DNA of 27,304 bases. It comes from Pseudomonadota bacterium (GTDB lineage Bacteria > UBA10199 > 2-02-FULL-44-16 > JBDRGF01). The DNA lies in NCBI GenBank assembly GCA_043818055.1, contig JBDRGF010000042.1:1-27304 (forward strand), read 5' to 3'. Position 1 is the stretch's first letter. Each line of letters opens with the position of its first letter. Below are positions 1 through 22,722 of this stretch, piece by piece. Position numbers and translations under genes: made by a program. The notes beneath the pieces were generated by a model. It saw only the letters and a list, made by a program, of their open reading frames with translations. It was not told the origin of the DNA and did no database searches.

Positions 1-537
1 TTTAATTCAGCGATGTCAGTGGCATAAGCGCGAGAACATAGTGGATTACTTGTCGAAAGAAGAACAACCCTTTATGAGGAGGCAATTACAGAGGGCTTAT
101 GAGCGACCGACATATGAAGAGGCAAGGAAATCACTTTTAAAAATTCGGAGAGATTTGGAAGAGAGGAATATATCAGCAGCAAACAGTTTGGATGAAGGAT
201 TTGAAGAGACGTTAACATTGCATCGATTAGGTCTTTTTGCAAAGTTGGGAAGAAGTCTTAAGACTAGCAATTGCATAGAGTCCATCAATTCAATGGTCGA
301 GGGGCGATGTGGAAAAGTTGATTATTGGAAGAACTCATCACAGCGGCAAAGGTGGTTGGCAGCAACATTGCTCGATATTGAGCCGAGGCTAAATCGAATC
401 AGTGGATACCGGCATTTACATGAATTGAGAGTAGCTTTGAAAAAAGAATTGAAGCTGTGTGACAAAGCTTCTAAGGAGGCTGCTTAAATGTTAACTGAAC
501 CGCTTTTCAAAATTTCAACTAAGTTTGGGATTGACCC
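1..537 (+). mobile_element. IS256-family insertion sequence, right end (partial); putative terminal inverted repeat ~510-537
   Basis: The transposase stop at 487 is followed by aaatttcaactaagtttgggattgaccc, ending in CCC (GGG on the minus strand), after which the sequence becomes sharply more AT-rich. The left IR is outside the window, so the end position is inferred. Confidence 0.6.
2..487 (+). CDS. IS256-family (Mutator-like) transposase, C-terminal part; the ORF runs off the left edge of the window
   Basis: The frame is open from position 2 (LIQRCQWHKRENIVDYL...), giving the IS256 C-x2-H motif QRCQWHK. Downstream, SLKTSNCIESINS contains the catalytic Glu region typical of IS256 transposases. 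Confidence 0.88.
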   Translation, partial: LIQRCQWHKRENIVDYLSKEEQPFMRRQLQRAYERPTYEEARKSLLKIRRDLEERNISAANSLDEGFEETLTLHRLGLFAKLGRSLKTSNCIESINSMVEGRCGKVDYWKNSSQRQRWLAATLLDIEPRLNRISGYRHLHELRVALKKELKLCDKASKEAA

Positions 538-881
538 TGGTAAAACGTTTGATGTCATAATTATAATAAGTATTGCTATTTTCACATGGTTACTAAAGCT
601 AGCGAAAATCAAAGGAAATCCTGTTCATTATTGAGCTTAATTGTCTTACTAAGGAAGTCTTTAATTCTAACCCATTGTAATATATAAAGATTATGTTAAG
701 GCAATAACAAAGCATAATAATTCTTTTTAACTTGAAATTAAAGTAAAATATATATATATGCATTGTCAACTACTTAAAATGGTTTGCTATTTTCAATAAA
801 GTCATGAGGAAGGTATTGCGGGTTTTACTGAGATGTTTTCGAATGTGATAAAAGAAACTTTATAGATTAAGTGAATTTATT

Positions 882-2090
882 ATGTGTAATAATGCTTGGT
901 TTCTAATAGCATCCAATTTTATTTCCCGCTTCGGAAGTTATTTTAGCTATATGGGAATAACAATTTATATTTTTGAAAAAACTGGTTCAAATTTTGCAGT
1001 AGGGCTATCTCTCTTATTGGTTTTAATTTCTCATCTTCTAGTTGCTCCTATTATTTTAAAATACAGTGACAGTTGGGATAAGAAAAAAACTCTTATCATA
1101 TGTAATATTATATCATTATTTTTACTATTACTTTGGAGTTTCAACGCTCAAAATCTCATTTTTGGTTATGCAATAATTTTTCTTAATGGAATATTTTCAA
1201 ATATTCACCAACCAGTTCAACAATCGCTTATTTCAGTTATTGTCAAAAAGAATGCTTTGGACAAAGTAAATTCATTGTTTGGGATCTCAGGTCAGATTAA
1301 TGTTATTGCTGGTTATGCTTGTGGAGCGATAATACTTCAATATTTTGGTATTTCAAACTTATTGTATTTAGATTCACTTACTTATGGGATTTCTGCAATT
1401 TTGATTTTTCTGATTAAAATTCCTAGTCTTGAATCAGCAGTAGAACAAAAATCATTAACCTTTAAATATCGTCCATTTTTTCAGAAATTATGGGAAAATG
1501 GTGTGATGACTTATATTCTCTTTCCGTTTTTAATTGTTTCATTTGCTTTTGGAGTAAATAACGGATTAGCAGTGGGGTTTTCAAGAACGACTTTGGGCTT
1601 AAGTATTGCTAAAACTGGAATTGTGGAGGCATTTTGCGGTGTAGGATTTATTTGTGGAGGTATTATTGTCCCCAGGATATGTAGATGGGATGACGAAGTA
1701 ATTTTTTACATTGCTTCTATTTTTTCGACGATGTTTGGTGTTGCATTGGGTTTGTCAACAAATTTTACTATTGCAGCATTTTTTTGGTTTTTGGCTGGAT
1801 TTATTAATGCATTTACCTTTGTCAAATGGCGTTCATTTGTTCAAAAACGTTTGGAAATAAAAATTCAGGCACGAACATTTTCTATGATATTGACACTGAC
1901 ATCAATTACTCAACTTATTTCACTCGGATTAAGTACATATTTGGCTGATATCTACGGGCCTGCAAATTTGTTGGTTGTCTTTGGAGTTTTATCAACGTCA
2001 CTTTTAATTATTTATGGGATTTGGTTTTTCTTTTTTAATCGTAACTATGTAACCGTACAGGGATTTAATAATGAAAATATTTCTTATTAA
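882..2090 (+). CDS. MFS transporter (DHA3/MefA-EntS-like exporter)
   Basis: 402 aa with about 12 hydrophobic segments. N-terminal SNFISRFGS...IYIFEKTGS, motif-A-like YSDSWDKKK, and C-terminal IQARTFS match this exporter family. Confidence 0.9.
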   Translation: MCNNAWFLIASNFISRFGSYFSYMGITIYIFEKTGSNFAVGLSLLLVLISHLLVAPIILKYSDSWDKKKTLIICNIISLFLLLLWSFNAQNLIFGYAIIFLNGIFSNIHQPVQQSLISVIVKKNALDKVNSLFGISGQINVIAGYACGAIILQYFGISNLLYLDSLTYGISAILIFLIKIPSLESAVEQKSLTFKYRPFFQKLWENGVMTYILFPFLIVSFAFGVNNGLAVGFSRTTLGLSIAKTGIVEAFCGVGFICGGIIVPRICRWDDEVIFYIASIFSTMFGVALGLSTNFTIAAFFWFLAGFINAFTFVKWRSFVQKRLEIKIQARTFSMILTLTSITQLISLGLSTYLADIYGPANLLVVFGVLSTSLLIIYGIWFFFFNRNYVTVQGFNNENISY

Positions 2091-3918
2091 TCCACCATTA
2101 CCAAGTGATTCATATTATCCTCCTTACGGATTGATGAGTTTGGCTTCAATGCCATTTTCTAGTAGTGTAGATATAAATATTTTTGACTACAATTTAATTT
2201 ATCAGAAAAGAAAATTGGGCATTAAGGAGGTTTTTGAATTAGCGCTTACCGATTTAAGTGAAAGTGATTGCGATGTTTTGGGTTTGACGTGTAATAGCTA
2301 TACCTTACCATTTGTATATGAATTATGTAAAAATATAAAGAGTAAGCCATATCGTTTGATTGTGGGGGGACCTGGTGTTTCATTTTTGCATAGTGAGCTA
2401 TTAACAACTCCATGTAACATTGACATTGTTGTACGAGGTGAAGGAGAAATTGCATTTCAAGAATTAGTGAACAATCAGTTTGTTCCAAATAGTAGTATTC
2501 CAAATATTTCATATCGCTTACCAGACAATTCAGTGATAAACACGGATAGCTTGCTAATTGAAAACTTGGATGATTTGCCTGTATTATCCAATGGTTATGG
2601 TGTTGATATAAATGAATATGTGGTTTTAGAAAGTTATTATGACAAGAATGCTGCTGCTATAGAAATTGGAAGAGGGTGCCCATATTCATGCCCATTTTGC
2701 AGTACAAGCCAAATGTGGGGAAGACGATATAGGATGAAGTCTGTTGAACGAGTAGCAAGAGAAATAGAGTTGTTTCGAACTGAAGGATATAGAAGATTTT
2801 TATTCATTCATGATAATTTTGGCTATTCCCATTCATATGTAAAAAGTTTGTGTAATGAAATTTCGAAACTTGATATTGAATGGTCAGCTAGTATTTCATT
2901 AAATTTATTAAATCCTGATTTAATGGACTTAATGGCTAATAGCGGCTGCAAGAGAATTTATCTTGGATTAGAATCTGGTTCGAAAAGAATTTTAAAGAGA
3001 ATTCCATATAAAACAGTTAAAGGAGAAAAAGATAAAATTAATAAGCTACTATCAACATTTGATCATGCAACATTCTCATATGTGATCGGTTTTCCTGAAG
3101 AGGATAAATTGAGTTTTAAAGAAACTCTTAATGCTGCATGGCAATATAAACTTCAAGGGGTCAGTGATATTCAGCTTCATCCATATACCTATCTACCAGG
3201 GGCGACTGATTATGAAAATGTGAAAAATAGGTTACATTTTGACAATAAACATCTTTTTGCAGAACGCGAATTGAATCAAATTTTAGAAGCTTTTCATGAT
3301 ACAATTCTTGAGCATCGCAACATATTTCCAAATTATTACTTTTTTGCCCCCATTAATCTAAAAGAAAACGATTGCATACATATTATTATAGAGTGCTATT
3401 CAGTTTTATTAAATAATTTCTCACAATTGACTAAACTTCTTGAGAAATACGGATTTATTGATGTGGGGAACATTTCCTCTAAATTGATTGATTATCTCAC
3501 TAAAAATTGCCCGTCTAATATAGATTATAACAGTATTGGGCAGCTAATTATCAATTATTTTAAAGGAAATTTAGATTTAGAAATTCCTGAAAAACTTTTA
3601 TTGTTATTTTCCGAAGTTGCAGAAGTTGAGTTGAACTTAGCACATTTTCTTTTCAAAAAAAGTAATGTTAAAAATAAGATTATTAGAGATTCATTTGTGT
3701 TTATGCATAGTTCTGATACTGACGGGGTGTTTGTAATAAAACCAGGAATATATTTATATGTTAATGGTGAAAAAAACTTTATTGTTTATCGATTGAACGA
3801 TAGTGATTATGAACTTTTTAAGTTAATTCAGCATGTGAATACACCTGATGATTTTCAACAAATTAGAAAATTATATTCTAATAGTGCAGATTTATTTGAA
3901 GCACTTTTAATAAATTGA
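2071..3918 (+). CDS. Cobalamin (B12)-binding radical SAM enzyme with probable C-terminal RRE/PqqD-like domain
   Basis: N-terminal B12-binding domain (KIFLINPP, PPYGLMSLA, DVLGLT, IVGGP, VRGEGE). CxxxCxxC motif GRGCPYSCPFC at 2677-2700, followed by HDNF, GLESGS and VIGFPEE. Overlaps the MFS gene by 20 nt. Confidence 0.93.
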   Translation: MKIFLINPPLPSDSYYPPYGLMSLASMPFSSSVDINIFDYNLIYQKRKLGIKEVFELALTDLSESDCDVLGLTCNSYTLPFVYELCKNIKSKPYRLIVGGPGVSFLHSELLTTPCNIDIVVRGEGEIAFQELVNNQFVPNSSIPNISYRLPDNSVINTDSLLIENLDDLPVLSNGYGVDINEYVVLESYYDKNAAAIEIGRGCPYSCPFCSTSQMWGRRYRMKSVERVAREIELFRTEGYRRFLFIHDNFGYSHSYVKSLCNEISKLDIEWSASISLNLLNPDLMDLMANSGCKRIYLGLESGSKRILKRIPYKTVKGEKDKINKLLSTFDHATFSYVIGFPEEDKLSFKETLNAAWQYKLQGVSDIQLHPYTYLPGATDYENVKNRLHFDNKHLFAERELNQILEAFHDTILEHRNIFPNYYFFAPINLKENDCIHIIIECYSVLLNNFSQLTKLLEKYGFIDVGNISSKLIDYLTKNCPSNIDYNSIGQLIINYFKGNLDLEIPEKLLLLFSEVAEVELNLAHFLFKKSNVKNKIIRDSFVFMHSSDTDGVFVIKPGIYLYVNGEKNFIVYRLNDSDYELFKLIQHVNTPDDFQQIRKLYSNSADLFEALLIN

Positions 3919-3934
3919 TGTAAATAACAAAAAC

Positions 3935-3941
3935 GAGGAGG
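3935..3941 (+). promoter_or_regulatory. Strong Shine-Dalgarno site for the small peptide ORF
   Basis: GAGGAGG at 3935-3941, 4 nt before ATG 3946, preceded by an A-rich stretch. Confidence 0.75.
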
Positions 3942-3945
3942 AAAA

Positions 3946-4002
3946 ATGGAAAAAGTTAAAGAAGTGAAAAAAGGTGGTGCAACCTGCGGCCAAGACAGAT
4001 GA
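3946..4002 (+). CDS. Putative RiPP precursor peptide, 18 aa: MEKVKEVKKGGATCGQDR (not in the ORF track)
   Basis: ATG 3946 to TGA 4000-4002, with a perfect SD, 27 nt downstream of the radical SAM stop. A Lys/Glu-rich leader-like half and a GG motif precede a 7-aa core-like segment ATCGQDR. A strong hairpin follows. Confidence 0.7.
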   Translation: MEKVKEVKKGGATCGQDR

Positions 4003-4024
4003 AATGATTGTAATTCTGCCAAAA

Positions 4025-4053
4025 ATCCCCGGGTTTAATAAAACCCGGGGGAT
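4025..4053. terminator. GC-rich stem-loop downstream of the peptide ORF (partial terminator or mRNA-stabilising hairpin)
   Basis: CCCCGGGTTT (4027-4036), loop AATA, AAACCCGGGG (4041-4050): a perfect 10-bp stem. No U-tract on the + strand; the A5 at 4021-4025 gives a U-tract on the minus strand. Confidence 0.65.
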
Positions 4054-4131
4054 ATAGGCTCTCACAGAAAAAGGAATCATGTGTCAAATTAGAAAGTCAG
4101 TTAATTCATCTTAAGAAAAAAGGAGTTTAAA

Positions 4132-4923
4132 ATGGAAAGTTACGCGCTTTATAGCAGGATTATACCGTATTATTTTAAAGATAGATCGTCCTATGGGTTT
4201 AGTGTTAATTTAGTAGATAAGATTTGTAAAAGGGAGCTTGGCAAGTTGGATCAAGTCCATGCTTTGGATATGGGAGCGGGTTTTGGCGCACATGCAGAAA
4301 TGTTTGCGGAAAAGGGATATAATGTTACTGCGATCGAGTTATCCACTCACATGGTTAATCTGTTTCGCGAACGCCTAAAATTATCAAAGCCTGATATAAA
4401 ACAACGCATTTCCTTATTTCATGATAGTTGGTTTAATGAAGATGGTGATTGGAATAAATCAAAATCATATCAACTTATATATTTTCTAGGAAATACGATT
4501 TGGAATACTGGAAATCGCAATGATTTATCAAGACTATTACGAAATAGTTACGATTTACTTGTCGATGGTGGATTGGTTGTTTTTGATCTGGATGCCTTTG
4601 ATGATTTGGAAGATAATGCTGAGTTAGTCTGGGGAAAACCTGTAGCAACTGATGTTCCAGGTACTAAGTTTCAATCTGCTTTTTCAAAAAGACGCCTGGG
4701 TAATGATGGAGAGTTAGAAGTAACGCTTCATGTTAAATGGATAGAAAATGGAATTGAAAGAATTGAAAAAGAGAAATTTCAAACATTTGCATTTGATAGT
4801 GAAGTTGTTGAGGAAATCGCTACTCAAACAGGTTTTCAGCTTATAGAAACCCTTAAGCCAAGAAAACTTTATGATCCTACTACTACCATTGATCAAACGA
4901 TGTGGATTTTAAAAAAGAATTAA
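4132..4923 (+). CDS. Class I SAM-dependent methyltransferase
   Basis: Motif I ALDMGAGFG, post-I VTAIELS and LLVDGGLVVFD, with a beta-rich insertion as in glycine/sarcosine N-methyltransferase-like enzymes. SD AAGGAG at ~4120-4125. Confidence 0.9.
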   Translation: MESYALYSRIIPYYFKDRSSYGFSVNLVDKICKRELGKLDQVHALDMGAGFGAHAEMFAEKGYNVTAIELSTHMVNLFRERLKLSKPDIKQRISLFHDSWFNEDGDWNKSKSYQLIYFLGNTIWNTGNRNDLSRLLRNSYDLLVDGGLVVFDLDAFDDLEDNAELVWGKPVATDVPGTKFQSAFSKRRLGNDGELEVTLHVKWIENGIERIEKEKFQTFAFDSEVVEEIATQTGFQLIETLKPRKLYDPTTTIDQTMWILKKN

Positions 4924-4983
4924 ATTATTCTCTTAATTATGGATACTCTGTGGCGTATTCAAATTAGCTGGAGGTTCGGAAAT

Positions 4984-6492
4984 ATGAACAAATTTAAGTA
5001 TTATCTTATGCTATTTTTAATCTTAGGGCCTTATGTTTCGAATGCGGGTGACTATCATACTACAATCGATGTAATACCAACTAATTGGGATCCGAGGGAG
5101 CATAAAGGAGGTTTTTATTTGAGGCTTTCTGGTCAAATCTTTTGTTCACTATTACAAATGGATGACAATCTTAACGTTTCTCCTGATTTGGCTATGAAAT
5201 GGTGGATTGATAAGAATGGAAAACGTTATATTTTTCTTCTTAGGGATGATGTTTTTTTTCATAATGGTAGGAGTGTCACTGCAGATGATGTGATCTATTC
5301 CCTTAATAGAATGAAACAACGAAGTGCTTTATCTCTCGATTTGCAAATTATCAAACACATCTCAAAGCCAAATAATAATTCAGATCTTCCTGCGTATTTA
5401 AAAGAATATAAGCATGACAGAGTTGTTATTATTGAATTAAAAGAACCCTTTTCACAAATGATGAGTCTATTGGCGAATATTACAATGGCAATTTTTCCTG
5501 AAGCAGAGCTTAAGGAAAATTCCGATTTGTTTTTCAAAAAGCCTATAAGCTGTGGCCCTTTTAAATTAGCTGATTTGCAATCGAATGTTGTTATTATGGA
5601 TCGAAATGAAAAATACCATGGTGTGAAAAATCCAACGATTGATAGGTTGGTCTTTCATAAAGTTAATTCAATTAAAGCTGCTGAACTATTTAACGAAGGC
5701 AAACTTGATGACATTGTTAACTTAATGGTTGATGAAAGCAAGATTAAGAGAGAATTTAGTAAATTAGAGGGATGGATATTTATTACTAGATTTATACGGT
5801 TAAATACAAAATCAAGTGTATTTAATAAGTTACAATGTAGAAGAGCTTTTATTAGTGCTTTTGATCGAGTTTTATTTATTGAGAAAGTTGGTTTGAAGAA
5901 AATGATTCCAGCCACTGGATTTATACCAAAAGGTATGTTGGGTCATCTTGAGAATTCGCCTTTTATTTATGAACCGAAGGAATCAAAAAAACTATGGCAA
6001 CAAGCTAAATGCAATGCTCACATTTCAGTTGTAACCTCAAGAAAAAAAGAAGCCAAAGCAATAAAGTTTGTTGCAGATAATATGAAAAAGACACTTGGTG
6101 TTTCACTCGACATTAAATATGTTGATCCTGATACATGGTATAAAAAATGGCATGATTTTAAAGATGATGCTATCTTGGGCGGAATGGATAGCATGTATAT
6201 TGATCCTTATTTTATTTTAAAACATGCAGACTCACACTTTGAAAGAAATTATATGGGAATAAAAGATCCAAATATTGATAAGTTGTTATCACAAGCATCA
6301 AAAGAACATGAAAAAGAAATGCGATCGAAGATTTATCAAAAGATTGATGAATTAATAATGAAACATTCAACAATAATGCCTTTATATTATGGCGATGTAG
6401 ATTCTGGAATATATTCAGCAAAAGTGAAAGGATTAAGATTGCCACCAACAGGCACAAATTATGTTAAATATAATTCTGTAAAATTACCTTAG
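4984..6492 (+). CDS. Periplasmic solute-binding protein, family 5 (OppA/DppA-like), with no permease or ATPase genes nearby
   Basis: PDLAMKW, YIFLLRDDVFFHNGRSVTADDVIYS, PISCGPFKL and IMPLYY motifs. Start reassigned from 4939 to ATG 4984 because GGAGG lies at 4970-4974 and a signal peptide (MNKFKYYLMLFLILGPYVSNA) follows. Confidence 0.9.
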   Translation: MNKFKYYLMLFLILGPYVSNAGDYHTTIDVIPTNWDPREHKGGFYLRLSGQIFCSLLQMDDNLNVSPDLAMKWWIDKNGKRYIFLLRDDVFFHNGRSVTADDVIYSLNRMKQRSALSLDLQIIKHISKPNNNSDLPAYLKEYKHDRVVIIELKEPFSQMMSLLANITMAIFPEAELKENSDLFFKKPISCGPFKLADLQSNVVIMDRNEKYHGVKNPTIDRLVFHKVNSIKAAELFNEGKLDDIVNLMVDESKIKREFSKLEGWIFITRFIRLNTKSSVFNKLQCRRAFISAFDRVLFIEKVGLKKMIPATGFIPKGMLGHLENSPFIYEPKESKKLWQQAKCNAHISVVTSRKKEAKAIKFVADNMKKTLGVSLDIKYVDPDTWYKKWHDFKDDAILGGMDSMYIDPYFILKHADSHFERNYMGIKDPNIDKLLSQASKEHEKEMRSKIYQKIDELIMKHSTIMPLYYGDVDSGIYSAKVKGLRLPPTGTNYVKYNSVKLP

Positions 6493-6511
6493 GTAATAGA
6501 AATAGAAGGTT

Positions 6512-8773
6512 ATGATTAAGCTTCAAAGGCATTTGTCATTTTTTTTAGCGTTGGTTTCGTTTATTGGCATTTTAGTGACGTCTTTTGTTATCGTGTATTA
6601 TTCCAAAATCCGTTTGTATGATGAATATTATAAATCAGCAATATCTCAGACTGATCGTGAGGTGTTAAATTTAAAAGAATATTTAACTCTTTATGAATAC
6701 TCAGAAATTATGAAGAGATACAGTAAGGATTTGCATATTCCTAATCTTATACAACTTACTGTATATGATGATGAGGATAGGATTATCGTAAAATGGAATA
6801 AAAGAAATAATATTGCAACTAATGTTAAGAATTATGATTCTATTCAACGAAAGATTAGTGCGTCTCAGAATACAGATAAAATAGTTGGTAGATTGTTAAT
6901 GGTATTTTCCCCCGAGCTGATTAATGATTTGTTTATTAAAGGTACTGCTTTGATAATACTATCAGGAATTATAATTGCCCTATGTGTAATAGTTATAGTG
7001 ATGAAAATTATCCATAAAACTATTGTTCCAATTAACAATATTACTGATAGAATGCGTAACTATGATCCTGACAGCAAAGAAGCTTTATTAACAATTACAG
7101 ATTCACGAATTTATGAGTTTAATATTTTATATTCCTCATTTAGAGAAATGGACAATGCAATAAAGAAACACCAGAGTATTGCTAGAGAGAATGCTGGTCT
7201 TGCTGCAATAGGGCAAACAACTTCTATGCTAGCCCATGATGTTCGTAAACCTTTTTCCATTTTGAAAGCTATATTGGACTCAGCTGATCATTATTTATCC
7301 AATTCCAACGACCTGGAAGAAGCTAAGCTCTCATTAGAGAAATCAATCAAACAAGTGGAAACAATGATAAATGACATAATGGATTTTTCGAGGGAGGAAA
7401 AACTCGATTCGAGTCCCACTTCAATAGTGCCGGTATTTGATTTTTCCATTAGACAGGCATCACAGCATTTTCAAGATTCTGATATTGATTTCATCTTCAA
7501 TATTTCCAATAGCTATAAGCCGATGATAGATGATGAAAGGATCTCAAGAGTCTTTGTGAATATTATATCTAATGGAATAGAAGCAATACTTCAAATAGGT
7601 GAAGTAAAATCAGGAACAATTGATATTTCAACTACGGATATTAGTCAAAGTGGAGTGAAATCTATTAGAATTGTGATCGGAAACGATGGTCCTCCGATTG
7701 ATGAAGAAAATATCCCGCACTTATTTGATTCGTTCTTTACTAAGGGAAAGAAAAAGGGGACAGGGATCGGGTTAGCTTCAGCTCTTAAGATAGTCACTTT
7801 GCATGGGGGAACAATATTAGCACAGAATCGTGAAGGCCAAAAGGGTGTTGAATTTATCATTACATTACCTGCTTCAAATGAGGATGATGATTCTGATTCA
7901 TCAATTTTGCCTAAAAATATAGTTGAGACTCAATTTATTAAAACTACCAAGGATGAAACTGAAATTGAGAAGATGATCAAAATGATGTCAGTAGCGAAAC
8001 AGAATATGAAGATATTGCTGCTCGAAGACGAAGCATTGTACAGGGCTTCCGTTAGAAACGCTATCAAGCAATATCATGATTTAGATAATCTTCTAACTTT
8101 GTATGAAGTACAAACAGTTGATGATGCCTTAAAATTATTGCAAACAGAGGATATAACTCACGCAATAGTTGATGTCGATTTGGGAGATGTTAAAAATGGG
8201 TTTGATTTTCTGGCTGTAGCACGGAAAAGCTATCCCTTGCTTCGATGCATGGTTCATTCAAACAGATGTATTGAGGAAGATAAGAAAAGAGCATATATGC
8301 TTGGAGCAAAGGCATTTGTTCCCAAACCACTTAATGTTGAACATCTTGTGGCGTTCTTGCAGGATGAGCACATAGTCTCAAATCGACTGCAAATCGGAAG
8401 CAAATTGACAATCCTGCTAATTAACGATGAACGTGCACTGAATTTAATGGCTAAAAACATGCTGAATGAAGTCTTAAAAATGAAACACAATTATGGTAAT
8501 GAGATTCAGTTCCATATGGCCAGTTCATATAATGAGGCTATTGCTTTGATTAAGGAGATAAACTTTGATTTTATCTTCTGTGATCTTGATTTGGGAAGCT
8601 CTCAAAATGGATATGATGTTCTTAATACTCTTAAAGAATTAAAACGAAAATCCAGATTTTATATCATCTCAGGAACACCGAGAAGCCAAGCGGAGCCGAA
8701 AGCTTTAGAACTCGGTGCTGATGGGTATCTGCAGTTGCCTATAGACCCGAGCGACTTCATTGATATCATTTGA
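6512..8773 (+). CDS. Membrane hybrid sensor histidine kinase (2 TM, periplasmic domain, HAMP-like linker, HisKA, HATPase, two REC domains)
   Basis: H-box MLAHDVRKPF, N-box VNIISNGIEA, G1 NDGPPI, F-box LFDSFFT, G2 GTGIGL. REC1: ILLLEDE...IVDVDL...FVPKP. REC2: ILLINDE...FCDLDL...YLQLP. Confidence 0.93.
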   Translation: MIKLQRHLSFFLALVSFIGILVTSFVIVYYSKIRLYDEYYKSAISQTDREVLNLKEYLTLYEYSEIMKRYSKDLHIPNLIQLTVYDDEDRIIVKWNKRNNIATNVKNYDSIQRKISASQNTDKIVGRLLMVFSPELINDLFIKGTALIILSGIIIALCVIVIVMKIIHKTIVPINNITDRMRNYDPDSKEALLTITDSRIYEFNILYSSFREMDNAIKKHQSIARENAGLAAIGQTTSMLAHDVRKPFSILKAILDSADHYLSNSNDLEEAKLSLEKSIKQVETMINDIMDFSREEKLDSSPTSIVPVFDFSIRQASQHFQDSDIDFIFNISNSYKPMIDDERISRVFVNIISNGIEAILQIGEVKSGTIDISTTDISQSGVKSIRIVIGNDGPPIDEENIPHLFDSFFTKGKKKGTGIGLASALKIVTLHGGTILAQNREGQKGVEFIITLPASNEDDDSDSSILPKNIVETQFIKTTKDETEIEKMIKMMSVAKQNMKILLLEDEALYRASVRNAIKQYHDLDNLLTLYEVQTVDDALKLLQTEDITHAIVDVDLGDVKNGFDFLAVARKSYPLLRCMVHSNRCIEEDKKRAYMLGAKAFVPKPLNVEHLVAFLQDEHIVSNRLQIGSKLTILLINDERALNLMAKNMLNEVLKMKHNYGNEIQFHMASSYNEAIALIKEINFDFIFCDLDLGSSQNGYDVLNTLKELKRKSRFYIISGTPRSQAEPKALELGADGYLQLPIDPSDFIDII

Positions 8774-11700
8774 TTTTTGAATTGGATATCTCTTTAAATT
8801 TATCGAGTAGTACCGGATTATTTCCTGCAAGTTTCTTCAAAAATGGGAGCAGGGATCGCGCCTCGGAATCCCTATTCTGCATTTTCAATGCGTTGAACTT
8901 CCAGTAGCCACTGACAAATTTCAAGGCATGGCTGGCATCAGGCAATTTGGCCATAGCAGAATCGGCCTGATCGATCAAACCGTAAGCCTCGTCGAACTTT
9001 TTCGTATGGATATAGGCCTCAGCCAACCCCAATTCTGCTCTTACCTGCAAATAATCACTGTTTCCCAAGCTCATTGCCGCTTCGAAATATTTTGGAGATT
9101 CGTTGAACTCTCCTTTTTCATTGTAACAGTTGCCTGTGTTAACCCATACGAATTTAGTAACTCTCTCGTGCTCTTCGAAACTGTCGAGGCATGTGCTTGC
9201 GGATAAGCAATGCTGATTCTCAGCGATCGATCTATCGAATTTTTTCGAATCGAAATAACAGGCTGATAAAACTGAATGCACAATGACCAGCCACCTGCCA
9301 TGTGATATTTGTTTAGCCAGATGATAGGCTTCCTGAGCATATTTTACAGCCTCTGAATACTTGGTAACTTTTCTCAAGCCTTCAGCTAATGAGAGACAGG
9401 CCAGCATGATCTTCAATATATTGTTGCTCTTTTTGCACTTATCCAATTCCCATTCCATGGCTTCGATAGCTTCACTAGTTTTCCCCAAAGCTAACAATAT
9501 CTGACCGAGTTCGTTATCGGTAACCAATGCCATGTTCGGATGATGGATTTTCTTTTCCAAATCCCGGCTCCTATTGTAAATCCTTTCAGCGTCCAGAAGA
9601 TACTTGCGGTCTTTGTTTCTCAGTTTGAAATTTATTCTTCCTTCCCAATTCAGGAAATAAATATTGTGAGAAGCGAATCGTTCATTGCCGCTTATTTTTC
9701 GGGCTTGTGAGATTATTTCTTTTGCCTCATCGAATTGCCCGGATTCGACGAAAGAGGGCAGAATCGATGTAAAAAGGCGCAATTTGCAAATATTCGTTTC
9801 TACCTCGTTTAGACCATGTGTCATCACTTCGGATTCATCGTAAAGCTCGAAAGCTTTTCGATATTCTCCTGAACAATAATATACATGTAATAACAACGAT
9901 CGCACATATATGGACAATCTCATCATCTTTGACGGAAGATATGACAGAGCCTTTATTAGCAGCTGTTGAGATAATAATATTTCTCCCTTCGTTGATAAAA
10001 GGCTACGCGCAAGCTTGATCAGACAGGCTAAACCTTTTATATCATGATTTCCGAATCCTGTGTGTAAATACAGTGCATCGCGATACGGTAATGAGCTAAC
10101 ACGTTTCAATTTAAGAAAGCCCGCTATTGCGAGATGATGCATGGTTTTCAATTCATCATTGAGATGGTCATAAATCACATCGGAAAAATATGGATTGTAA
10201 AATGTGTACGTCTTATCTTCCAGTACCTGTTCACTATTATCTATAGGATAGAGCGTGATCTCACTCTCATTCGTATCATCTGAACTGTTATCGTCAAATG
10301 CATGATGTTTCAATATTTGCTTTCGACATAGGCTTGTCAAATGCTGGCTGATACTGAGACCGGGGAAAAAATGACGAAGATCTATGACAGACACCGGAGG
10401 GGACACCCATTTCAAATGCCATACTGATAGTAAATCGATTATTCGTTTTTCAGAGGTATTCAATGCATCATATTGCCTCATGATGCGATTTTCAGTCGTT
10501 TTTGGAGCTTTTTTCCGACTCTTACTTATTTCAGGTGCGTGTGCTTTGAAAAGATGAACATTTCCATCGAGGTCAAATAACAGACCTTCGCTATCGAGTT
10601 GTATCAGCTGTTCGCTTATTTCGCTCGGGATACCTCCCGTTTGGCGCAAAAGAGTACGAATCCATTTCAGTGAAATATCCTGTTTTTTCAGAGCCAGAGT
10701 CGATTTGAGATAGTTGCTTATTCCATCTTCTCCAAAAGGTTTGAGGTCTATCATCTTGAGCGGCAAATCGTTCATTTTTGTGATCGTACCCACGACGTTT
10801 TTCGAAGAACGGATCTGGCAGGGATCGCTTGAAAAACAAAACATAACCGGTTTTAAATGCTCATACAACTGAGGTTGTGATTTTCGTTGGGCTAAACCAT
10901 GAGCCAAGCCAATCAGCGATTTTCGAATCTGCTCGAAACCCGAAGAGGTTTTCCCGTTGCTGCCGAAGAGATGCAAATCATCTATCAATATCAATAAGGG
11001 ATATCTATTTTCATCCAATAGTCTCGCCAACTGGAGGGTCCATGTAAGCGCCCATTCTTCATCGATCGGAAATCTGATCTGGTGCAAAAGCATCTGTCCC
11101 ATCTTCTTTTCGGCGAAATTTCTAATTTCCTGAAGAAAGCAGCTTTTGCCCAGGCCCTTTTCGCCGGAAATGCAATAAACAGAAAAAGGGGAGGGCTGCA
11201 CACCTTTTGCTATGGAACTTATGCTATCGCTGATCTCCCCTATCTCGGATTCACATCCGACAAATTTATCTGGTATCAGATAACAGGATTTGATCTCCTG
11301 GGATTCCATAAAACTATCCGGCAAGCGAGTCTTAAGCGCGTTTATCACAGCTCGTGCCGTTCCGTAAAACCGATCAGAAGGATTGCGCTGCAATAACCTC
11401 ATGACTATTGTGTCCAAATATTCCGGAATATCCGGGCTTCGCGTTTTCAAAGATTTTGGAGATAGTTCGCTTTCGACAATTTGTGCCAGTTTTTTTGGAT
11501 CTTTCTGCCAACCATATCTCTTTTTGAAAGGATACGTATGCGCCAGACAATAGTACATGAGTGCTGCGGCTGAGAAGAGATCGGTAGAAGCGCCTATCTG
11601 ATTTTCCCAGGACAGGATCACTTCCGGAGCGATATACATAGGCGTCCCTAGCATATGTCTTTTATTTGCCGTAATCGCTGTGGCGATTCCGAAATCGATG

Positions 11701-12236
11701 ATCTTGACAACCGGCTTTCCGTCAATTTCTTTGATCAGGACGTTTTCAGGCTTGATATCGCCATGCAATAACCCGCTATCGTGAATAAATTGCAGGCCTT
11801 CGAACAACTGGATGAAGAAGGGGGGCATCGAATCTTCCGAAATTTTCCTCGTATATACAAATATGTCGTATCCTTCGATGTATTCAGAGGTAAAATATAA
11901 GAAATCCTCGAAAAGACCGAATTCATAAACCGAAGCTATATTCGGGTGATTAATACCGAGAAGTTGATGTTGATATTCCTCTTTAAATCGCTCTATGACG
12001 TTCTGGTAATGCTTTGAAAACTTCTCTTCGAGGTGTTCCGAGGTGAGTTTCTCGTTGGCGTGCTTGATTTTGAATGAAGCGAATACAGTTTCCCTATTCA
12101 GAAATTTCAGCGCGACAGGTTTCTTTTGTTCCAAATCGGTGGCTAAATAGACAATGCCAAAACCACCTTGACCGATTTCGCGTTCGATCCGGTTATGTCC
12201 TACTATCGTGCCTGGCAAAATCTCCGTAATATCCAT
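8766..12236 (-). CDS. Hanks-type Ser/Thr protein kinase fused to a P-loop ATPase (STAND/AAA-like) and C-terminal TPR repeats
   Basis: Kinase motifs IGQGGFGIVY, VALK, HGDIKPEN, DFG, GTPMYIAPE and DLFS. Walker A GEKGLGKS, Walker B LLILIDD, TGGIP motif, and a helical TPR-like C-terminus. Overlaps the HK stop convergently by 8 nt. Confidence 0.9.
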   Translation of the reverse strand: MDITEILPGTIVGHNRIEREIGQGGFGIVYLATDLEQKKPVALKFLNRETVFASFKIKHANEKLTSEHLEEKFSKHYQNVIERFKEEYQHQLLGINHPNIASVYEFGLFEDFLYFTSEYIEGYDIFVYTRKISEDSMPPFFIQLFEGLQFIHDSGLLHGDIKPENVLIKEIDGKPVVKIIDFGIATAITANKRHMLGTPMYIAPEVILSWENQIGASTDLFSAAALMYYCLAHTYPFKKRYGWQKDPKKLAQIVESELSPKSLKTRSPDIPEYLDTIVMRLLQRNPSDRFYGTARAVINALKTRLPDSFMESQEIKSCYLIPDKFVGCESEIGEISDSISSIAKGVQPSPFSVYCISGEKGLGKSCFLQEIRNFAEKKMGQMLLHQIRFPIDEEWALTWTLQLARLLDENRYPLLILIDDLHLFGSNGKTSSGFEQIRKSLIGLAHGLAQRKSQPQLYEHLKPVMFCFSSDPCQIRSSKNVVGTITKMNDLPLKMIDLKPFGEDGISNYLKSTLALKKQDISLKWIRTLLRQTGGIPSEISEQLIQLDSEGLLFDLDGNVHLFKAHAPEISKSRKKAPKTTENRIMRQYDALNTSEKRIIDLLSVWHLKWVSPPVSVIDLRHFFPGLSISQHLTSLCRKQILKHHAFDDNSSDDTNESEITLYPIDNSEQVLEDKTYTFYNPYFSDVIYDHLNDELKTMHHLAIAGFLKLKRVSSLPYRDALYLHTGFGNHDIKGLACLIKLARSLLSTKGEILLSQQLLIKALSYLPSKMMRLSIYVRSLLLHVYYCSGEYRKAFELYDESEVMTHGLNEVETNICKLRLFTSILPSFVESGQFDEAKEIISQARKISGNERFASHNIYFLNWEGRINFKLRNKDRKYLLDAERIYNRSRDLEKKIHHPNMALVTDNELGQILLALGKTSEAIEAMEWELDKCKKSNNILKIMLACLSLAEGLRKVTKYSEAVKYAQEAYHLAKQISHGRWLVIVHSVLSACYFDSKKFDRSIAENQHCLSASTCLDSFEEHERVTKFVWVNTGNCYNEKGEFNESPKYFEAAMSLGNSDYLQVRAELGLAEAYIHTKKFDEAYGLIDQADSAMAKLPDASHALKFVSGYWKFNALKMQNRDSEARSLLPFLKKLAGNNPVLLDKFKEISNSKIK

Positions 12237-12266
12237 AAATTAAACAGAAAAAATAAGCTGAAAATT

Positions 12267-13322
12267 CTACCGGTTCGACATGCTTTTGGTAACCGTAGTA
12301 TCACCCAATTTTTTCTTGTTGAGCTCGTCCTGAAACAGCTCCGTGATTTTCTTTGAGACCACACGAGCGCTCTTGAGTGATCTGTTTTCGGGATTCGCTT
12401 TCAATAGAGCCACGATTATATCCTCTAGCTTGTCAATTTTAGCAGCTGCCTCTTTATCACAATCCTTCTGGAGCATCAGAGTATTTCTCTGCGAGGGTTT
12501 CATCTGCTCATGCTCTTTTGTCACTATTTCCTTAAGTTTGCCAATATCGGAAACTTCTTCGCGATCCGGAAATGGATCGGCACGACACATGCAGGAATAA
12601 GCCAAAGCAGCGAAGGAATATAAGTCGGATGTCTCTGAGATTTTACCGGACTCTTGCAAGATCACCTCAGGCGCGGAATATATCGGTGAGCCATATGATT
12701 TAATGGCAACCTCGCCAATATCAACCGCATAGCCATAATCTGTAAGCTTGGTTACCGAGGGATAGGCTGCTTTAACGAAGACCCGTTTTGACTTCAGATT
12801 GAGATGCAATAGGTTTTCGTCATGGATGAAATCGAGCGCTTCGAGTATGGACAAAAATATCGGGATCATTCCGAGTATGCTCATGCCGCATGTGACATCG
12901 AATATCGGAGCCCCGTCCACGTACTCCGTAGTCACTACCGCCTCGCCATTATGATCTATTCCGACATCTATCACTTTCGCGATGTTCGGATGATCGAGCC
13001 CGACAACTCTCGTATGGCGTCTGATGAAATCCTTCAGTTCGTCTTGATATTTGGATTCGGCATTTTTCTTGAACTCAACGCGTATTTCGTCGGTATCGGA
13101 TCCAGATTGAGGAATAAAACCATATTGAACCTCGAATTTCATCTTGTCCAAGCGGGATATGAGCACTTTGTCGTTCGTACGTGTATCAACTGCCAGTTGG
13201 GATTTGGTCCACTTGCTAGGTTCTTCACCTTGAGACAGATCACGAATCACGACGTAATTTTTCAACATTGCGTCCGTGCTTTGAAGCTCCGATGCCATTT
13301 TAGTAGGTTCGATATTTGTCAT
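12267..13322 (-). CDS. Ser/Thr kinase-like protein, probable pseudokinase
   Basis: The kinase fold is retained (LDHPNIAKV, TEYVDG, GSPIYSAPE, SDLYSF). The catalytic loop reads HLNLK (Asp to Asn), the Gly-rich loop is lost, VAxK is replaced by VLIS, and DFG reads DYG. SD GGGGG upstream. Confidence 0.85.
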   Translation of the reverse strand: MTNIEPTKMASELQSTDAMLKNYVVIRDLSQGEEPSKWTKSQLAVDTRTNDKVLISRLDKMKFEVQYGFIPQSGSDTDEIRVEFKKNAESKYQDELKDFIRRHTRVVGLDHPNIAKVIDVGIDHNGEAVVTTEYVDGAPIFDVTCGMSILGMIPIFLSILEALDFIHDENLLHLNLKSKRVFVKAAYPSVTKLTDYGYAVDIGEVAIKSYGSPIYSAPEVILQESGKISETSDLYSFAALAYSCMCRADPFPDREEVSDIGKLKEIVTKEHEQMKPSQRNTLMLQKDCDKEAAAKIDKLEDIIVALLKANPENRSLKSARVVSKKITELFQDELNKKKLGDTTVTKSMSNR

Positions 13323-13468
13323 AATGCCCCCCTTAATGATTTAATTCCTTTATTTTACACTAGGCTGAACAGACTGTCATTAAATTTTCAATGCCTTGTA
13401 ACCTTATATTTTTGCCTATTATGAACCGTTTGACTGTGATTAACAAAGGATTTCTAGCGTTATTTCTT

Positions 13469-13497
13469 TTGCTACGAATGGGCTATTGTAGTATATA
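13469..13497 (+). promoter_or_regulatory. Possible sigma70 promoter for the phosphatase gene
   Basis: TTGCTA (13469-13474), 17-nt spacer, TATATA (13492-13497), 25 nt upstream of the ATG. Weak evidence in AT-rich DNA. Confidence 0.3.
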
Positions 13498-13522
13498 TAC
13501 CCTCTGAAAAAGAGGGGGATAT

Positions 13523-14419
13523 ATGACTACGAAAAAGCCTAAAATACGCTCTTATGCAGCTACGGAGCAATTGGAGAGAAAAGAGAATCAGGATTACTAT
13601 TTTTCCGACGGAAAAAGCAAACTCTACCTTGTCGCAGACGGAATGGGGGGATTCGAGGGTGGGGCATATGCAAGCAAATTTACTTCAGAACTGGCCTCGA
13701 AACTCATCGAGACCATCGACAGCCTCTCTTCTCAGCATTCAGGTCATGATGATACCTTTGTGCCGGAAACTTTCGAAGCAACAGCTGATTATGAAACAAT
13801 CCTGCAAACATTGATCAGGGAGATTCACGACCGGATCATTAGCGAAACTGATAGATTGGCATTCGAAAAGATGGGTTGCACATTAGTTCTGGTACTCTTC
13901 AGAAATTCAAAAGCTTATGTCCTTAACGTGGGCGATTCTCCATGTTATCTATACAGCGAACAAACACTAAGACAGATAACGCGTTCACATTCGAAAGTGG
14001 ATCAGATGGTAAGGGATGGCGAGATTACGAAAGAAGAGGCAAAAATTCACCCCAAAAGAAATGTGGTTACAAGATGTATCGGAGGAGCGAAGGAAAAGGC
14101 CGTGGCTGATATCCACATCATGCCATATTATGAGAACGACCGGTTTTTCCTGTGTACGGATGGGGTGACTAAAGTCCTGACCGATGAACAGATAGAGTCT
14201 TTTTTAAAATACAAAGACCCCAAAGAAGCGATCGATCTGATGATGGGCACTATCAAAGACGCTCCCCCGACTCGTTCATCAACCTCTGGAAAAATAATAG
14301 CAAAAGACAATGCAACTGCGATGATCGTCGATGTGGCCTCTCTGGGAGAAAAGGTCTTGAAAGATGAGAAGAACCCCCCGACAGTAAAACATAATCACAA
14401 GGAAGATACGATTCTGTAA
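13523..14419 (+). CDS. PP2C/PPM-family Ser/Thr protein phosphatase (PrpC/Stp1-like)
   Basis: RKENQD, VADGMGG, MGCT, NVGDS, HPKRNVVTRCIG, LCTDGV and KDNAT motifs. SD GAGGGGG upstream. Confidence 0.93.
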   Translation: MTTKKPKIRSYAATEQLERKENQDYYFSDGKSKLYLVADGMGGFEGGAYASKFTSELASKLIETIDSLSSQHSGHDDTFVPETFEATADYETILQTLIREIHDRIISETDRLAFEKMGCTLVLVLFRNSKAYVLNVGDSPCYLYSEQTLRQITRSHSKVDQMVRDGEITKEEAKIHPKRNVVTRCIGGAKEKAVADIHIMPYYENDRFFLCTDGVTKVLTDEQIESFLKYKDPKEAIDLMMGTIKDAPPTRSSTSGKIIAKDNATAMIVDVASLGEKVLKDEKNPPTVKHNHKEDTIL

Positions 14420-14649: not shown

Positions 14650-15063
14650 ATGAAAATTGATTTGAAAAAAATACTTTCTGCTTATGGGCAAAATCATCCT
14701 GAGATATCCTTGATATATCTTTTCGGTTCACATGCTTGCTCCAGAGCTATGATCGACAGCGATATCGATGTTGCCATTCTCTTTAAAAACTCTTCATATA
14801 ATGATGATATACTGAAATACATTATTGATCTTTCAAAGGCCTTAAAAACGGATAAGCTTGATTTGGTCATACTCAATAAATCTACCCCGCTTCTATCATT
14901 TCAGGTAATCAGACATGGCAAATGCCTTTACAATATATCAAATGCTTCAAGGGTAAGATTTGAGACTCAAACTCTCAGGGAATACCTTGATCTCACCCAT
15001 ATTTTTGAAATTCAACGTAACTATGTGAAAAAACAAATAAATAAGGGGGAATACTTTGGTTGA
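14650..15063 (+). CDS. mntA: MntA-type minimal nucleotidyltransferase antitoxin (type VII TA)
   Basis: YLFGS-x-SDIDVA motif (GS..DxD), then DLVILN and VIRHGK. Overlaps the downstream HEPN gene by 8 nt. Confidence 0.88.
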   Translation: MKIDLKKILSAYGQNHPEISLIYLFGSHACSRAMIDSDIDVAILFKNSSYNDDILKYIIDLSKALKTDKLDLVILNKSTPLLSFQVIRHGKCLYNISNASRVRFETQTLREYLDLTHIFEIQRNYVKKQINKGEYFG

Positions 15064-15472
15064 CTATGATATTATAATGAAACGGCTTGAAAAACTTAAG
15101 GGCTATATTCTTATCCTGAAAAAGCTTAAAAAGACGCCCAGAAGCCAATTTATAGAGGATCCTTTTATTCATGGGCTGGCTGAAAGATATCTTCATCTCT
15201 CAATTGAAGCTCTGATTGATATCGGTAATCATGTAATAAGTGACCAGAAATTTAAAAAACCTGAAACTTATGCTGAAATTTTCGAGATATTGTTCAAAAA
15301 CGGCATAATACCTAAAACACTCTACTTAAAAATATCCGACATGCCGGCATTTAGAAATGTATTGGTTCATGACTACCTGGATATAGATCATGGTATTGTA
15401 TATAAAACTTTGCAGGAAAAACTGGAATTGCTTGAACAATTGGCCAAAAAGTTTGCAAAATTTATTCAATAG
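15056..15472 (+). CDS. hepT: HepT-like HEPN ribonuclease toxin (DUF86 family)
   Basis: AERYLHLSIEALIDIG and FRNVLVHDY (R-x4-H-x-Y HEPN motif with the Tyr that is adenylylated in characterised systems). Confidence 0.88.
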   Translation: MVDYDIIMKRLEKLKGYILILKKLKKTPRSQFIEDPFIHGLAERYLHLSIEALIDIGNHVISDQKFKKPETYAEIFEILFKNGIIPKTLYLKISDMPAFRNVLVHDYLDIDHGIVYKTLQEKLELLEQLAKKFAKFIQ

Positions 15473-22607: not shown

Positions 22608-22621
22608 ATCTGTTTCCGAAT

Positions 22622-22684
22622 GTAGGGGCAGGTTTAAAACCTGCCCTAAAGATAGTTTCGGGCGGGTTAGAAACCCGCCCCTAC
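22622..22684. repeat. Inverted pair of GTAG-family REP hairpins (BIME-like doublet)
   Basis: GTAGGGGCAGGTTTAAAACCTGCCCTA (22622-22648), then GGGCGGGTTAGAAACCCGCCCCTAC (22660-22684). Confidence 0.85.
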
Positions 22685-22722
22685 AATTAAAAACAATCAA
22701 TTACTTAATAAAGGAGCAACTT

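Follow-up and report, generated by a model that had tools for sequence, protein, structure and literature searches.

A candidate peptide-signalling cassette combining a B12-binding radical SAM enzyme with an orphan solute-binding protein and a hybrid histidine kinase

We describe a cassette of six genes, all on the + strand at 882-8773 of a 27,304-nucleotide contig from a Pseudomonadota bacterium (JBDRGF010000042.1, in its entirety the window), which is contig C42 of genome G000 (completeness 93.6%). In order, the genes encode a major facilitator superfamily (MFS) transporter, a B12-binding radical S-adenosylmethionine (SAM) enzyme (rSAM), an 18-codon open reading frame (ORF), a methyltransferase, a family-5 solute-binding protein (SBP5) and a hybrid histidine kinase. 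With roughly even confidence, we propose that the cassette makes, exports and senses a small modified peptide, as a peptide autoinducer-like circuit in a two-membrane bacterium.

An original prediction, made from the window sequence, had advanced a similar reading: production, export and sensing of a peptide that is ribosomally synthesized and then post-translationally modified (RiPP). It stands in part. The co-occurrence of SBP5 and kinase genes with the rSAM gene, a short ORF in a constant slot, an rSAM region resembling a RiPP recognition element (RRE) and the parallel variation of SBP5 and kinase sensor speak for it, while the unlikeness of the peptides, the failure of the rSAMs to form one clade and the scarcity of SBP5 beside other ApyD-like enzymes speak against it.

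Gene anatomy of the cassette

The elements of the cassette are as follows (aa, amino acids; nt, nucleotides).

882..2090, + strand: MFS transporter, 402 aa, predicted exporter (PF07690, E 4e-26)
2071..3918, + strand: B12-binding radical SAM protein, 615 aa (PF02310 and PF04055)
3946..4002, + strand: candidate precursor peptide, 18 aa, MEKVKEVKKGGATCGQDR (GAGGAGG five bases 5' of the ATG)
4026..4051, + strand: strong hairpin directly 3' of the peptide gene (dG -24.0 over 70 nt past the stop, z -5.1)
4132..4923, + strand: class I SAM-dependent methyltransferase, 263 aa (PF13649)
4984..6492, + strand: SBP5, 502 aa (PF00496, E 2.5e-56)
6512..8773, + strand: hybrid histidine kinase, 753 aa (Pfam domains, hydropathy, alignment, predicted sensor fold)

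These coordinates confirm the predicted gene order and common strand. Seven genes with overlaps or short gaps had been claimed; six were found, and the gaps are indeed short (27, 129, 60 and 19 nt), but only the MFS and rSAM genes overlap (20 nt). The sole candidate for a seventh gene, an 11-codon ORF at 4079-4114, was rejected for its weak ribosome site and for want of a counterpart in the sister cassettes described below. The island is also compositionally distinct, as had been noted, with a GC content of 31.7% against 43.3% for the genome and none of 802 genome windows (7.5 kb) as low.

The DNA at 3261-4444, which spans the end of the rSAM gene, the peptide gene, the hairpin and the start of the methyltransferase gene, matches a contig from a public DNA run with zero differences; the run may derive from the source sample itself. 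Public runs containing window DNA are groundwater and biofilm samples. A viral collection held no relative, and Rfam gave no match within 1-9500 of the window.

The best NCBIfam models for the MFS transporter are TIGR00900 and Mef-type efflux, every one under its cut-off, and the protein matches its paralogue in the sister cassette on contig C73 at 31%. The SBP5 gene most likely starts at 4984 rather than 4939, given a GGAGG site, an N-terminus like a signal peptide and the length of 502 aa called in the collection itself.

Co-variation of the binding protein and the kinase sensor

The N-terminus of the SBP5 is signal-peptide-like, without a lipobox, and its profile lies nearest to OppA/DppA structures, nearer than to NikA. 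None of the four SBP5 cassette genes in G000 has a permease beside it; PF00528 permease matches in the genome are confined to contigs C102, C21 and C33, and the arrangement is not that of an Opp/Dpp ABC importer. In the kinase, two membrane helices flank a single-Cache-like periplasmic domain (its predicted fold resembles sCache/CHASE8-type models, TM about 0.8), followed by HisKA (His242), HATPase and two receiver domains, the first with Asp554 and Lys605 invariant in our alignment.

Across 15 cassettes, SBP5 similarity tracks similarity of the kinase sensor domain (Mantel r=0.60, p=0.0004), as would be expected if the SBP5 docks on the sensor, and does not track that of the kinase core (r=0.20, p=0.13). 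The sensor and SBP5 of the window are nearest to those of C73 (31% and 44%, respectively), whereas its kinase core is nearest to that of C35 (63%), and the window kinase looks chimeric by these comparisons.

Recurrence in sister cassettes

We searched 93 genomes of one class with profiles of the SBP5, kinase, methyltransferase and rSAM, reading 10 + 40 + 36 regions from the profile searches. In this guided rather than exhaustive search, an SBP5 gene adjoins a kinase of this type, or lies one gene from it, at 16 loci in 12 genomes, four of the loci being in G000. A binding-protein gene next to one for a kinase whose periplasmic part is Cache-like is an arrangement shared with co-receptor systems such as CBP-ChiS, LuxPQ and AioXS. 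The original prediction had named co-occurrence of SBP5 and kinase with the rSAM as a check on itself, and we found it in five complete cassettes from three genomes. The principal sister loci are listed below.

C99 (G000): rSAM, 62-aa ORF, methyltransferase, SBP5, kinase, NtrC-type activator
C35 (G000): MATE transporter, methyltransferase, rSAM, 16-aa ORF with hairpin, SBP5, kinase
C73 (G000): MFS, methyltransferase, SBP5, kinase, NtrC-type activator; neither an rSAM nor an ORF led by a ribosome site
G005: sigma-54 motif, MFS, B12-rSAM, 27-aa Lys/Glu-rich ORF with hairpin, 258-aa protein, SBP5, kinase
G033: rSAM, 65-aa ORF, methyltransferase, SBP5, kinase
G088: rSAM, 17-aa Lys-rich ORF with hairpin, SBP5, then the contig end

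The gene order of G005 is that of the window. By profile comparison, the 258-aa protein in its methyltransferase slot is no methyltransferase, and it has no family match. In G011, G057 and G001, short ORFs accompany further enzymes of peptide type (a SPASM-type rSAM, a DUF4135-like protein and another rSAM, respectively) ahead of SBP5 and kinase genes. SBP5-kinase pairs also occur with no enzyme genes (G072, G026:C29 and G014:C86), and resemble solo receptors.

Pattern scans of metagenomes and genomes yielded distant relatives alone, which we used as controls. SBP5 was found at none of 80 distant B12-rSAM loci (41 of them at least 8 kb), and a kinase at one of 80 distant SBP5 loci.

Several other loci came to light in these regions. 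A separate family of ApyD-like B12-rSAMs of about 530 aa (L279-L313) is widespread in the phylum, often right behind a gene for 160-240 aa, and lacks SBP5 and kinase. At G057:C67 (L255, 1495-6412), a sigma-54 motif, a 23-aa acidic ORF, a DUF4135-like protein, SBP5 and kinase, with an MFS gene upstream, form a LanM/daptide-like variant of the cassette. At G011:C92 (L250, 649-7008), a 9-codon ORF that is led by a ribosome site and has a strong hairpin occurs with genes for two methyltransferases, an SBP5, a kinase and an rSAM of SPASM type, the whole behind a gene that by eye looks IS200-type. G026:C27 (L064, 671-6179) has neither SBP5 nor kinase, but carries a Lys-rich ORF of 17 aa whose last residue is Trp, together with two B12-rSAMs and an MFS gene.

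Within G000 itself, C75:10923-29661 (L025 covers 8000-27999) holds two sigma-54 motifs, short ORFs of 30, 32 and 26 aa and four rSAMs, together with TldD-like, AcrB-like, MFS, methyltransferase, Peripla_BP_6, same-type kinase and NtrC genes. A candidate for another RiPP cassette lies on the - strand at C38:165-6901, where a sigma-54 motif, an rSAM, four Cys-rich ORFs of 47-84 aa, an SBP5-like protein and a methyltransferase are cut by the contig end. Tandem arrays of about 6-7 SBP5 genes occur at G014:C39, G003:C22 and G012:C35.

Short ORFs beside the enzymes

The 18-aa peptide of the window has a Lys/Glu-rich first half, a single Cys at residue 14 and no Tyr. A short ORF led by a ribosome site lies directly 3' of the enzyme gene at six of the seven loci that combine a B12-rSAM with SBP5, in four of five genomes. 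Against this, 19 of 489 same-strand gaps of the genome hold such an ORF (GGAGG/AGGAG-led, 8-70 aa), three of these being the cassette ORFs, and none was present in 10 gaps at eight loci, seven of which lack an rSAM. The expectation of a similar peptide ORF at homologous loci was therefore borne out as regards the slot, but not as regards sequence. In having a short, ribosome-site-led candidate precursor gene that recurs beside the enzyme in related loci, the cassette resembles RRE-dependent RiPP clusters.

The hairpin past the window peptide gene is stronger than in shuffled sequences, and hairpins likewise follow the C35, G005, G011 and G088 peptides; none was present after those of C99 or G033. 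It is likely an mRNA stabiliser or attenuator.

A motif, V-x-[EKR]-[VI]-[KR], which was defined after the peptides were seen and is missing in C35 and G033, occurs in five of seven B12-rSAM-linked peptides (counting the G026 locus that lacks SBP5), in none of three others, and at 20 of 5722 ribosome-site-led starts across the genome. It may be an RRE-binding strand or the modified site. Cys is present in five of the six B12-cassette peptides, the sixth (G088) having none and ending in Met. A universal Cys core is weakened as an idea by this exception, and by a chance probability of 0.06 for the five peptides found first.

Three further candidates were set aside. A double-glycine leader was rejected, as GG occurs only in the window peptide, the exporter is of the MFS type and no C39 exporter is linked; the one weak C39 match elsewhere in the genome lies inside a 276-aa frame. 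Co-variation of peptide and SBP5 looked suggestive by eye (window with C73; C99 with G088) and was not statistically significant. A 23-aa ORF overlapping the stop of the C73 MFS gene has neither ribosome site nor hairpin, and was not counted.

The radical SAM enzyme and the methyltransferase

The rSAM carries CxxxCxxC at 203-210 and scores 43 bits with PF02310 (cut-off 32) and 71 bits with PF04055 (cut-off 29.5); an N-terminal cobalamin-binding domain followed by a radical SAM domain is the composition of class B, or B12-dependent, enzymes. Its best NCBIfam family is ApyD (NF050148), at 173 bits against a cut-off of 750 and with a match limited to residues 16-437. From this nearest family, we infer methyl transfer to an unactivated carbon.

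The tail of the enzyme (430-615) is DUF2063/RRE-like, with TM scores of 0.55-0.64 to HvfC/BufC-type DUF2063 and NGO1945_C models, although even the score of 0.64 compares predicted models and lies under the naming bar of the tool; Pfam gave no match to this tail. HvfC/BufC-type DUF2063 proteins are described as carrying an RRE-type domain (PMC12452194). Taken together, the RRE-like tail and the fixed position of the ORF favour a peptide substrate.

Among 1.84 billion representatives searched, the rSAM has only two close relatives, the C99 paralogue (about 40-41%) and P0003 (39%). The methyltransferase belongs to a rare family, of three proteins at E<=1e-15; P0004 and P0264 (33%) are among its relatives. 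Its profile matches glycine and glycine/sarcosine N-methyltransferases in the PDB (E 1e-14 to 1e-10), and N-methyltransferases are its nearest characterised relatives; against the NCBIfam daptide methyltransferase NF041820, it scores 31.6 bits, short of the cut-off of 175.

B12 is probably scavenged by the host, since no cobS was found in the genome, at its stated completeness, and its only TonB receptor resembles BtuB most closely (281 bits against a cut-off of 600).

Promoters and the adjacent mobile element

The sister cassettes are wired to sigma-54, a feature absent from the original prediction. The motif is matched at 8 of 8 positions upstream of C99, C73 and C35, and at 7-8 of 8 before all four of the other complete B12 cassettes, against a background of 0.018 per kb; rpoN is present in the genome, and NtrC-type genes close the C99 and C73 cassettes. 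This combination of sigma-54 motif and NtrC gene would suit positive feedback. The motif is absent from the window copy, another point new to this analysis: the 450 nt that precede the MFS gene contain no sigma-54 site with at least 4 of 8 matches. Sigma-70-like sites at 450-9000 are not above shuffles. Two features precede the cassette.

1..538, + strand: 3' end of an IS256-family (Mutator) transposase with the right end of the element, outside the cassette proper (PF00872, E 4e-12)
539..881, + strand: upstream region, with no sigma-54 -24/-12 motif in a motif scan

The transposase gene occupies 2-487. The right end of the element lies 343 nt upstream of the cassette, at about 538, and the copies found on C60 (83%) and C24 (97%) terminate at positions corresponding to 535-537. 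As the sigma-54 motif is missing here, feedback in this copy may be lost or rewired by the insertion sequence.

A TTGACC hexamer at 531-536 in the end of the element faces the cassette and is a possible -35 of a hybrid promoter; no well-spaced -10 was found. Elsewhere, the upstream regions of C73 and C35 (1-319 in each, beginning at contig ends) are 94% identical, and C3 begins (1-141) with a match to their first 141 nt, which suggests a recently duplicated promoter or repeat.

Proposed circuit

Gene anatomy, gene order and recurrence with a short ORF led by a ribosome site were read directly from the loci. Every biochemical step is one that we infer. The DUF2063/RRE-like region at the C-terminus of the rSAM would grip the 18-aa peptide, with the V-x-[EKR]-[VI]-[KR] strand as the probable contact, and the enzyme would C-methylate an unactivated carbon with methylcobalamin, as ApyD does. 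More speculatively, a housekeeping peptidase, unlinked to the cassette, would trim the peptide and the methyltransferase would N-methylate a free amine. The MFS transporter would move the product to the periplasm, where the SBP5 would bind it and act as a co-receptor on the single-Cache-like domain of the kinase. His242 would then pass phosphate to an NtrC-type activator encoded elsewhere, and sigma-54 promoters would fire. In the sister cassettes, this output would include the cassette's own promoter, giving positive feedback.

A broader, more tentative reading, which we hold at somewhat below even confidence, is that such cassettes are modular peptide quorum-sensing channels of an uncultured two-membrane phylum. 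Each sigma-54 cassette would have its own rSAM-modified micro-peptide and a matched orphan SBP5 and sensor, with signal, enzyme and receptor halves shuffled among cassettes, solo receptors eavesdropping, and at least four SBP5 channels in one genome.

Several findings weigh against a peptide circuit of this kind. Firstly, the peptides are diverse: the six B12-cassette peptides range from 16 to 65 aa, with none of 15 pairs beating shuffles at p<0.05, and the closest enzyme pair, window and C99, has ORFs of unlike size (18 and 62 aa). Their similarity does not follow that of the SBP5 (r=0.14, p=0.23), so that the peptide as SBP5 ligand is a conjecture. At G014:C33, an rSAM and SBP5 occur with no ORF past the enzyme, on a contig cut upstream. 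The motif's after-the-fact definition and the dependence of the RRE match on predicted models (TM 0.64) count on the same side.

Secondly, the enzymes and exporters are not constant. The cassette rSAMs do not form one clade in a tree of 62 proteins (five changes needed, at least three of them forced; a quick method with long branches), and their chemistry may therefore differ among cassettes. SBP5 is lacking in 35 of 36 further ApyD-like regions, an exporter in C99 and G033, and both rSAM and ribosome-site-led ORF in C73. As the original prediction stated, the window appears to encode no protease: no protease family was matched among the main ORFs scanned (13 in Pfam and six more in NCBIfam, two of the six having no match of any kind at E<=1e-15).

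Thirdly come points on reception and expression. Adjacent DNA moving together could partly account for the co-variation of SBP5 and sensor. Kinases of this type also follow a range of other enzyme genes (GNAT, FemAB-like, cyclodeaminase, DHQ-synthase-like and further non-peptide ones), there accompanied by binding proteins from other families; the layout in the phylum seems to be a general one of enzyme, binding protein and kinase, and the peptide cassettes a branch of it. The missing sigma-54 site of the window copy also belongs here. Contigs from a public RNA run fall in 17 of 30 bins, where they cover stretches of the SBP5, kinase and enzyme genes, and are absent from 3685-3991, the bin with most of the peptide gene; as they indicate neither strand nor level, expression level or absence is not readable from them.

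Alternative explanations

We weighed four alternatives, given here in descending order of probability. It is unlikely, in our estimation, that the product of the rSAM and methyltransferase is a small-molecule signal such as a methylated amino acid, with the ORF as a scaffold or regulatory peptide instead of the signal itself. The kinship of the methyltransferase with small-molecule N-methyltransferases would suit this, as would the lack of a short ORF where a sister cassette has a GNAT, FemAB-like or ATP-grasp enzyme. One form of it, thiol methylation followed by iterative B12 methylation, could draw on the Cys residues of the peptides or the terminal Met of the sixth, and has a precedent in the carrier peptide described for TmoS/TmoD (PMC9303977). 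The Cys pattern is, however, open to the chance probability and the exception given above, no PEARL or MNIO gene is present, and the RRE-like tail and fixed ORF position indicate a peptide substrate.

An improbable second alternative retains the RiPP as a product that is chiefly antimicrobial or an effector, sequestered by the SBP5 for immunity while the kinase provides product-induced production, as is known for nisin. The likeness of the transporter to Mef-type efflux pumps, the low-GC mobile island with an insertion sequence at its edge and the high diversity of the peptides could all be accommodated. The cores would be very short, however, and SBP5-kinase pairs persist where no enzyme gene does; the association of the same kinase type with many unrelated synthases is a better fit to signalling.

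Thirdly, the circuit could be cell-autonomous, with the MFS transporter delivering the peptide solely to the cell's own periplasm and the kinase reading the amount of modified peptide, and with it the supply of scavenged B12 and SAM, instead of population density. An MFS transporter crosses one membrane only, and the cassette has no outer-membrane exporter; the missing cobS and the lone BtuB-like receptor would also agree with this. We regard this as quite improbable. Short peptides may exit through porins, and a cell-autonomous circuit leaves unexplained both the several parallel cassettes with different peptides and those with B12-independent enzymes.

Finally, a Cys-based metal chelator, sensed or retrieved in its metal-loaded form by the SBP5, is very improbable: the SBP5 family does include nickel and metallophore binders and most of the peptides contain Cys, but OppA/DppA are closer to the SBP5 profile than NikA is, the cassette has no permease, one peptide has no Cys, and the sister cassettes are under sigma-54 rather than metal-repressor control.

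Comparison with known systems

In the Gram-positive agrBDCA and comQXPA systems of peptide quorum sensing, a short precursor, a modifying enzyme and a kinase share one locus, and the peptide and receptor-facing parts are variable. Their kinases bind the peptide directly, their chemistry is that of AgrB or ComQ and their regulators are of the LytTR/NarL type. The present cassette differs in its two-membrane host, B12-rSAM, SBP5 and sigma-54, and no AgrB, ComQ or LytTR/NarL families were found among the cassette genes. Daptide partners are DUF4135, a dehydrogenase and an aminotransferase, all of which are absent from the cassette.

LuxP-LuxQ has a sigma-54 output via LuxO and an unlinked synthase gene. 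There too, the cell makes the signal (AI-2) itself, and a periplasmic binding protein detects it and works through a kinase (PMC8050422). LuxP belongs to PF13407 instead of SBP5, and the signal is a sugar-derived small molecule. The same review describes CBP-ChiS of Vibrio, in which a PF00496 protein serves as co-receptor of a hybrid sensor kinase and senses external chitin oligosaccharide (PMC8050422); CBP serves a transporter as well, and the ChiS sensor is dCache-like. In the cassette, by contrast, the SBP5 is permease-less, the sensor is single-Cache-like and the synthesis module lies in the same gene run.

ApyD of Burkholderia thailandensis, of the aminopyruvatides, is reported as a B12-rSAM with an RRE, which carries out beta-methylation of a Tyr in its peptide (10.1101/2023.10.30.564719). 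It is similar in length to the enzyme described here and its cluster also has a methyltransferase, but the gene list given for that cluster names no SBP5 or kinase (10.1101/2023.10.30.564719). The cassette, for its part, has no MNIO or P450, and its peptide has no Tyr, hence no Tyr-Leu-Tyr-Asp-type core. In 3-thiahomoleucine synthesis by Tistrella mobilis, a methyltransferase and then a B12-rSAM (TmoS/TmoD) are described as acting on one carrier peptide (PMC9303977). Such pearlins need PEARL, MNIO and a protease, and neither PEARL nor MNIO genes were found in the window or the sister cassettes.

By analogy, the cassette would resemble agr/comQXPA in logic and LuxPQ or CBP-ChiS in reception. 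By their defining features, it belongs to none of these, nor to the aminopyruvatides, daptides, pearlins or double-glycine bacteriocins. Literature searches, which covered openly accessible papers, did not find this architecture described; what appears new is a putative RiPP module within peptide signalling.

In general, Gram-positive bacteria are credited with peptide autoinducers, and Gram-negatives with acyl-homoserine lactones (PMC9346555). If correct, our proposal would place RiPP-based signalling in a two-membrane lineage, and would make a peptide-type SBP5 a kinase co-receptor, for which sugar-sensing CBP-ChiS is the sole precedent in the review cited above (PMC8050422). The loci would also offer small enzyme-peptide pairs for new B12 radical chemistry, with precursors of 16-27 residues that gene callers skip, and a natural case of module swapping among binding protein, sensor domain and kinase core.

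Genomic context

The genome has Omp85 and a TonB receptor, on which the two-membrane status of the host rests, lpxC not having been found in the genome. The cassette is flanked at 8766-14419 of the window by a pair of Ser/Thr kinases, of which one has TPRs, and by a PP2C phosphatase. Judged by eye, the C99 cassette has a comparable trio at its flank, which hints at a shared insertion context. Further along, a nucleotidyltransferase and HepT-like pair, of the MNT-HEPN toxin-antitoxin type, occupies a low-GC patch at 14650-15472, and glycogen genes (a debranching enzyme, a glycogen-synthase-like glycosyltransferase and an alpha-glucan phosphorylase) occupy 18089-25272.

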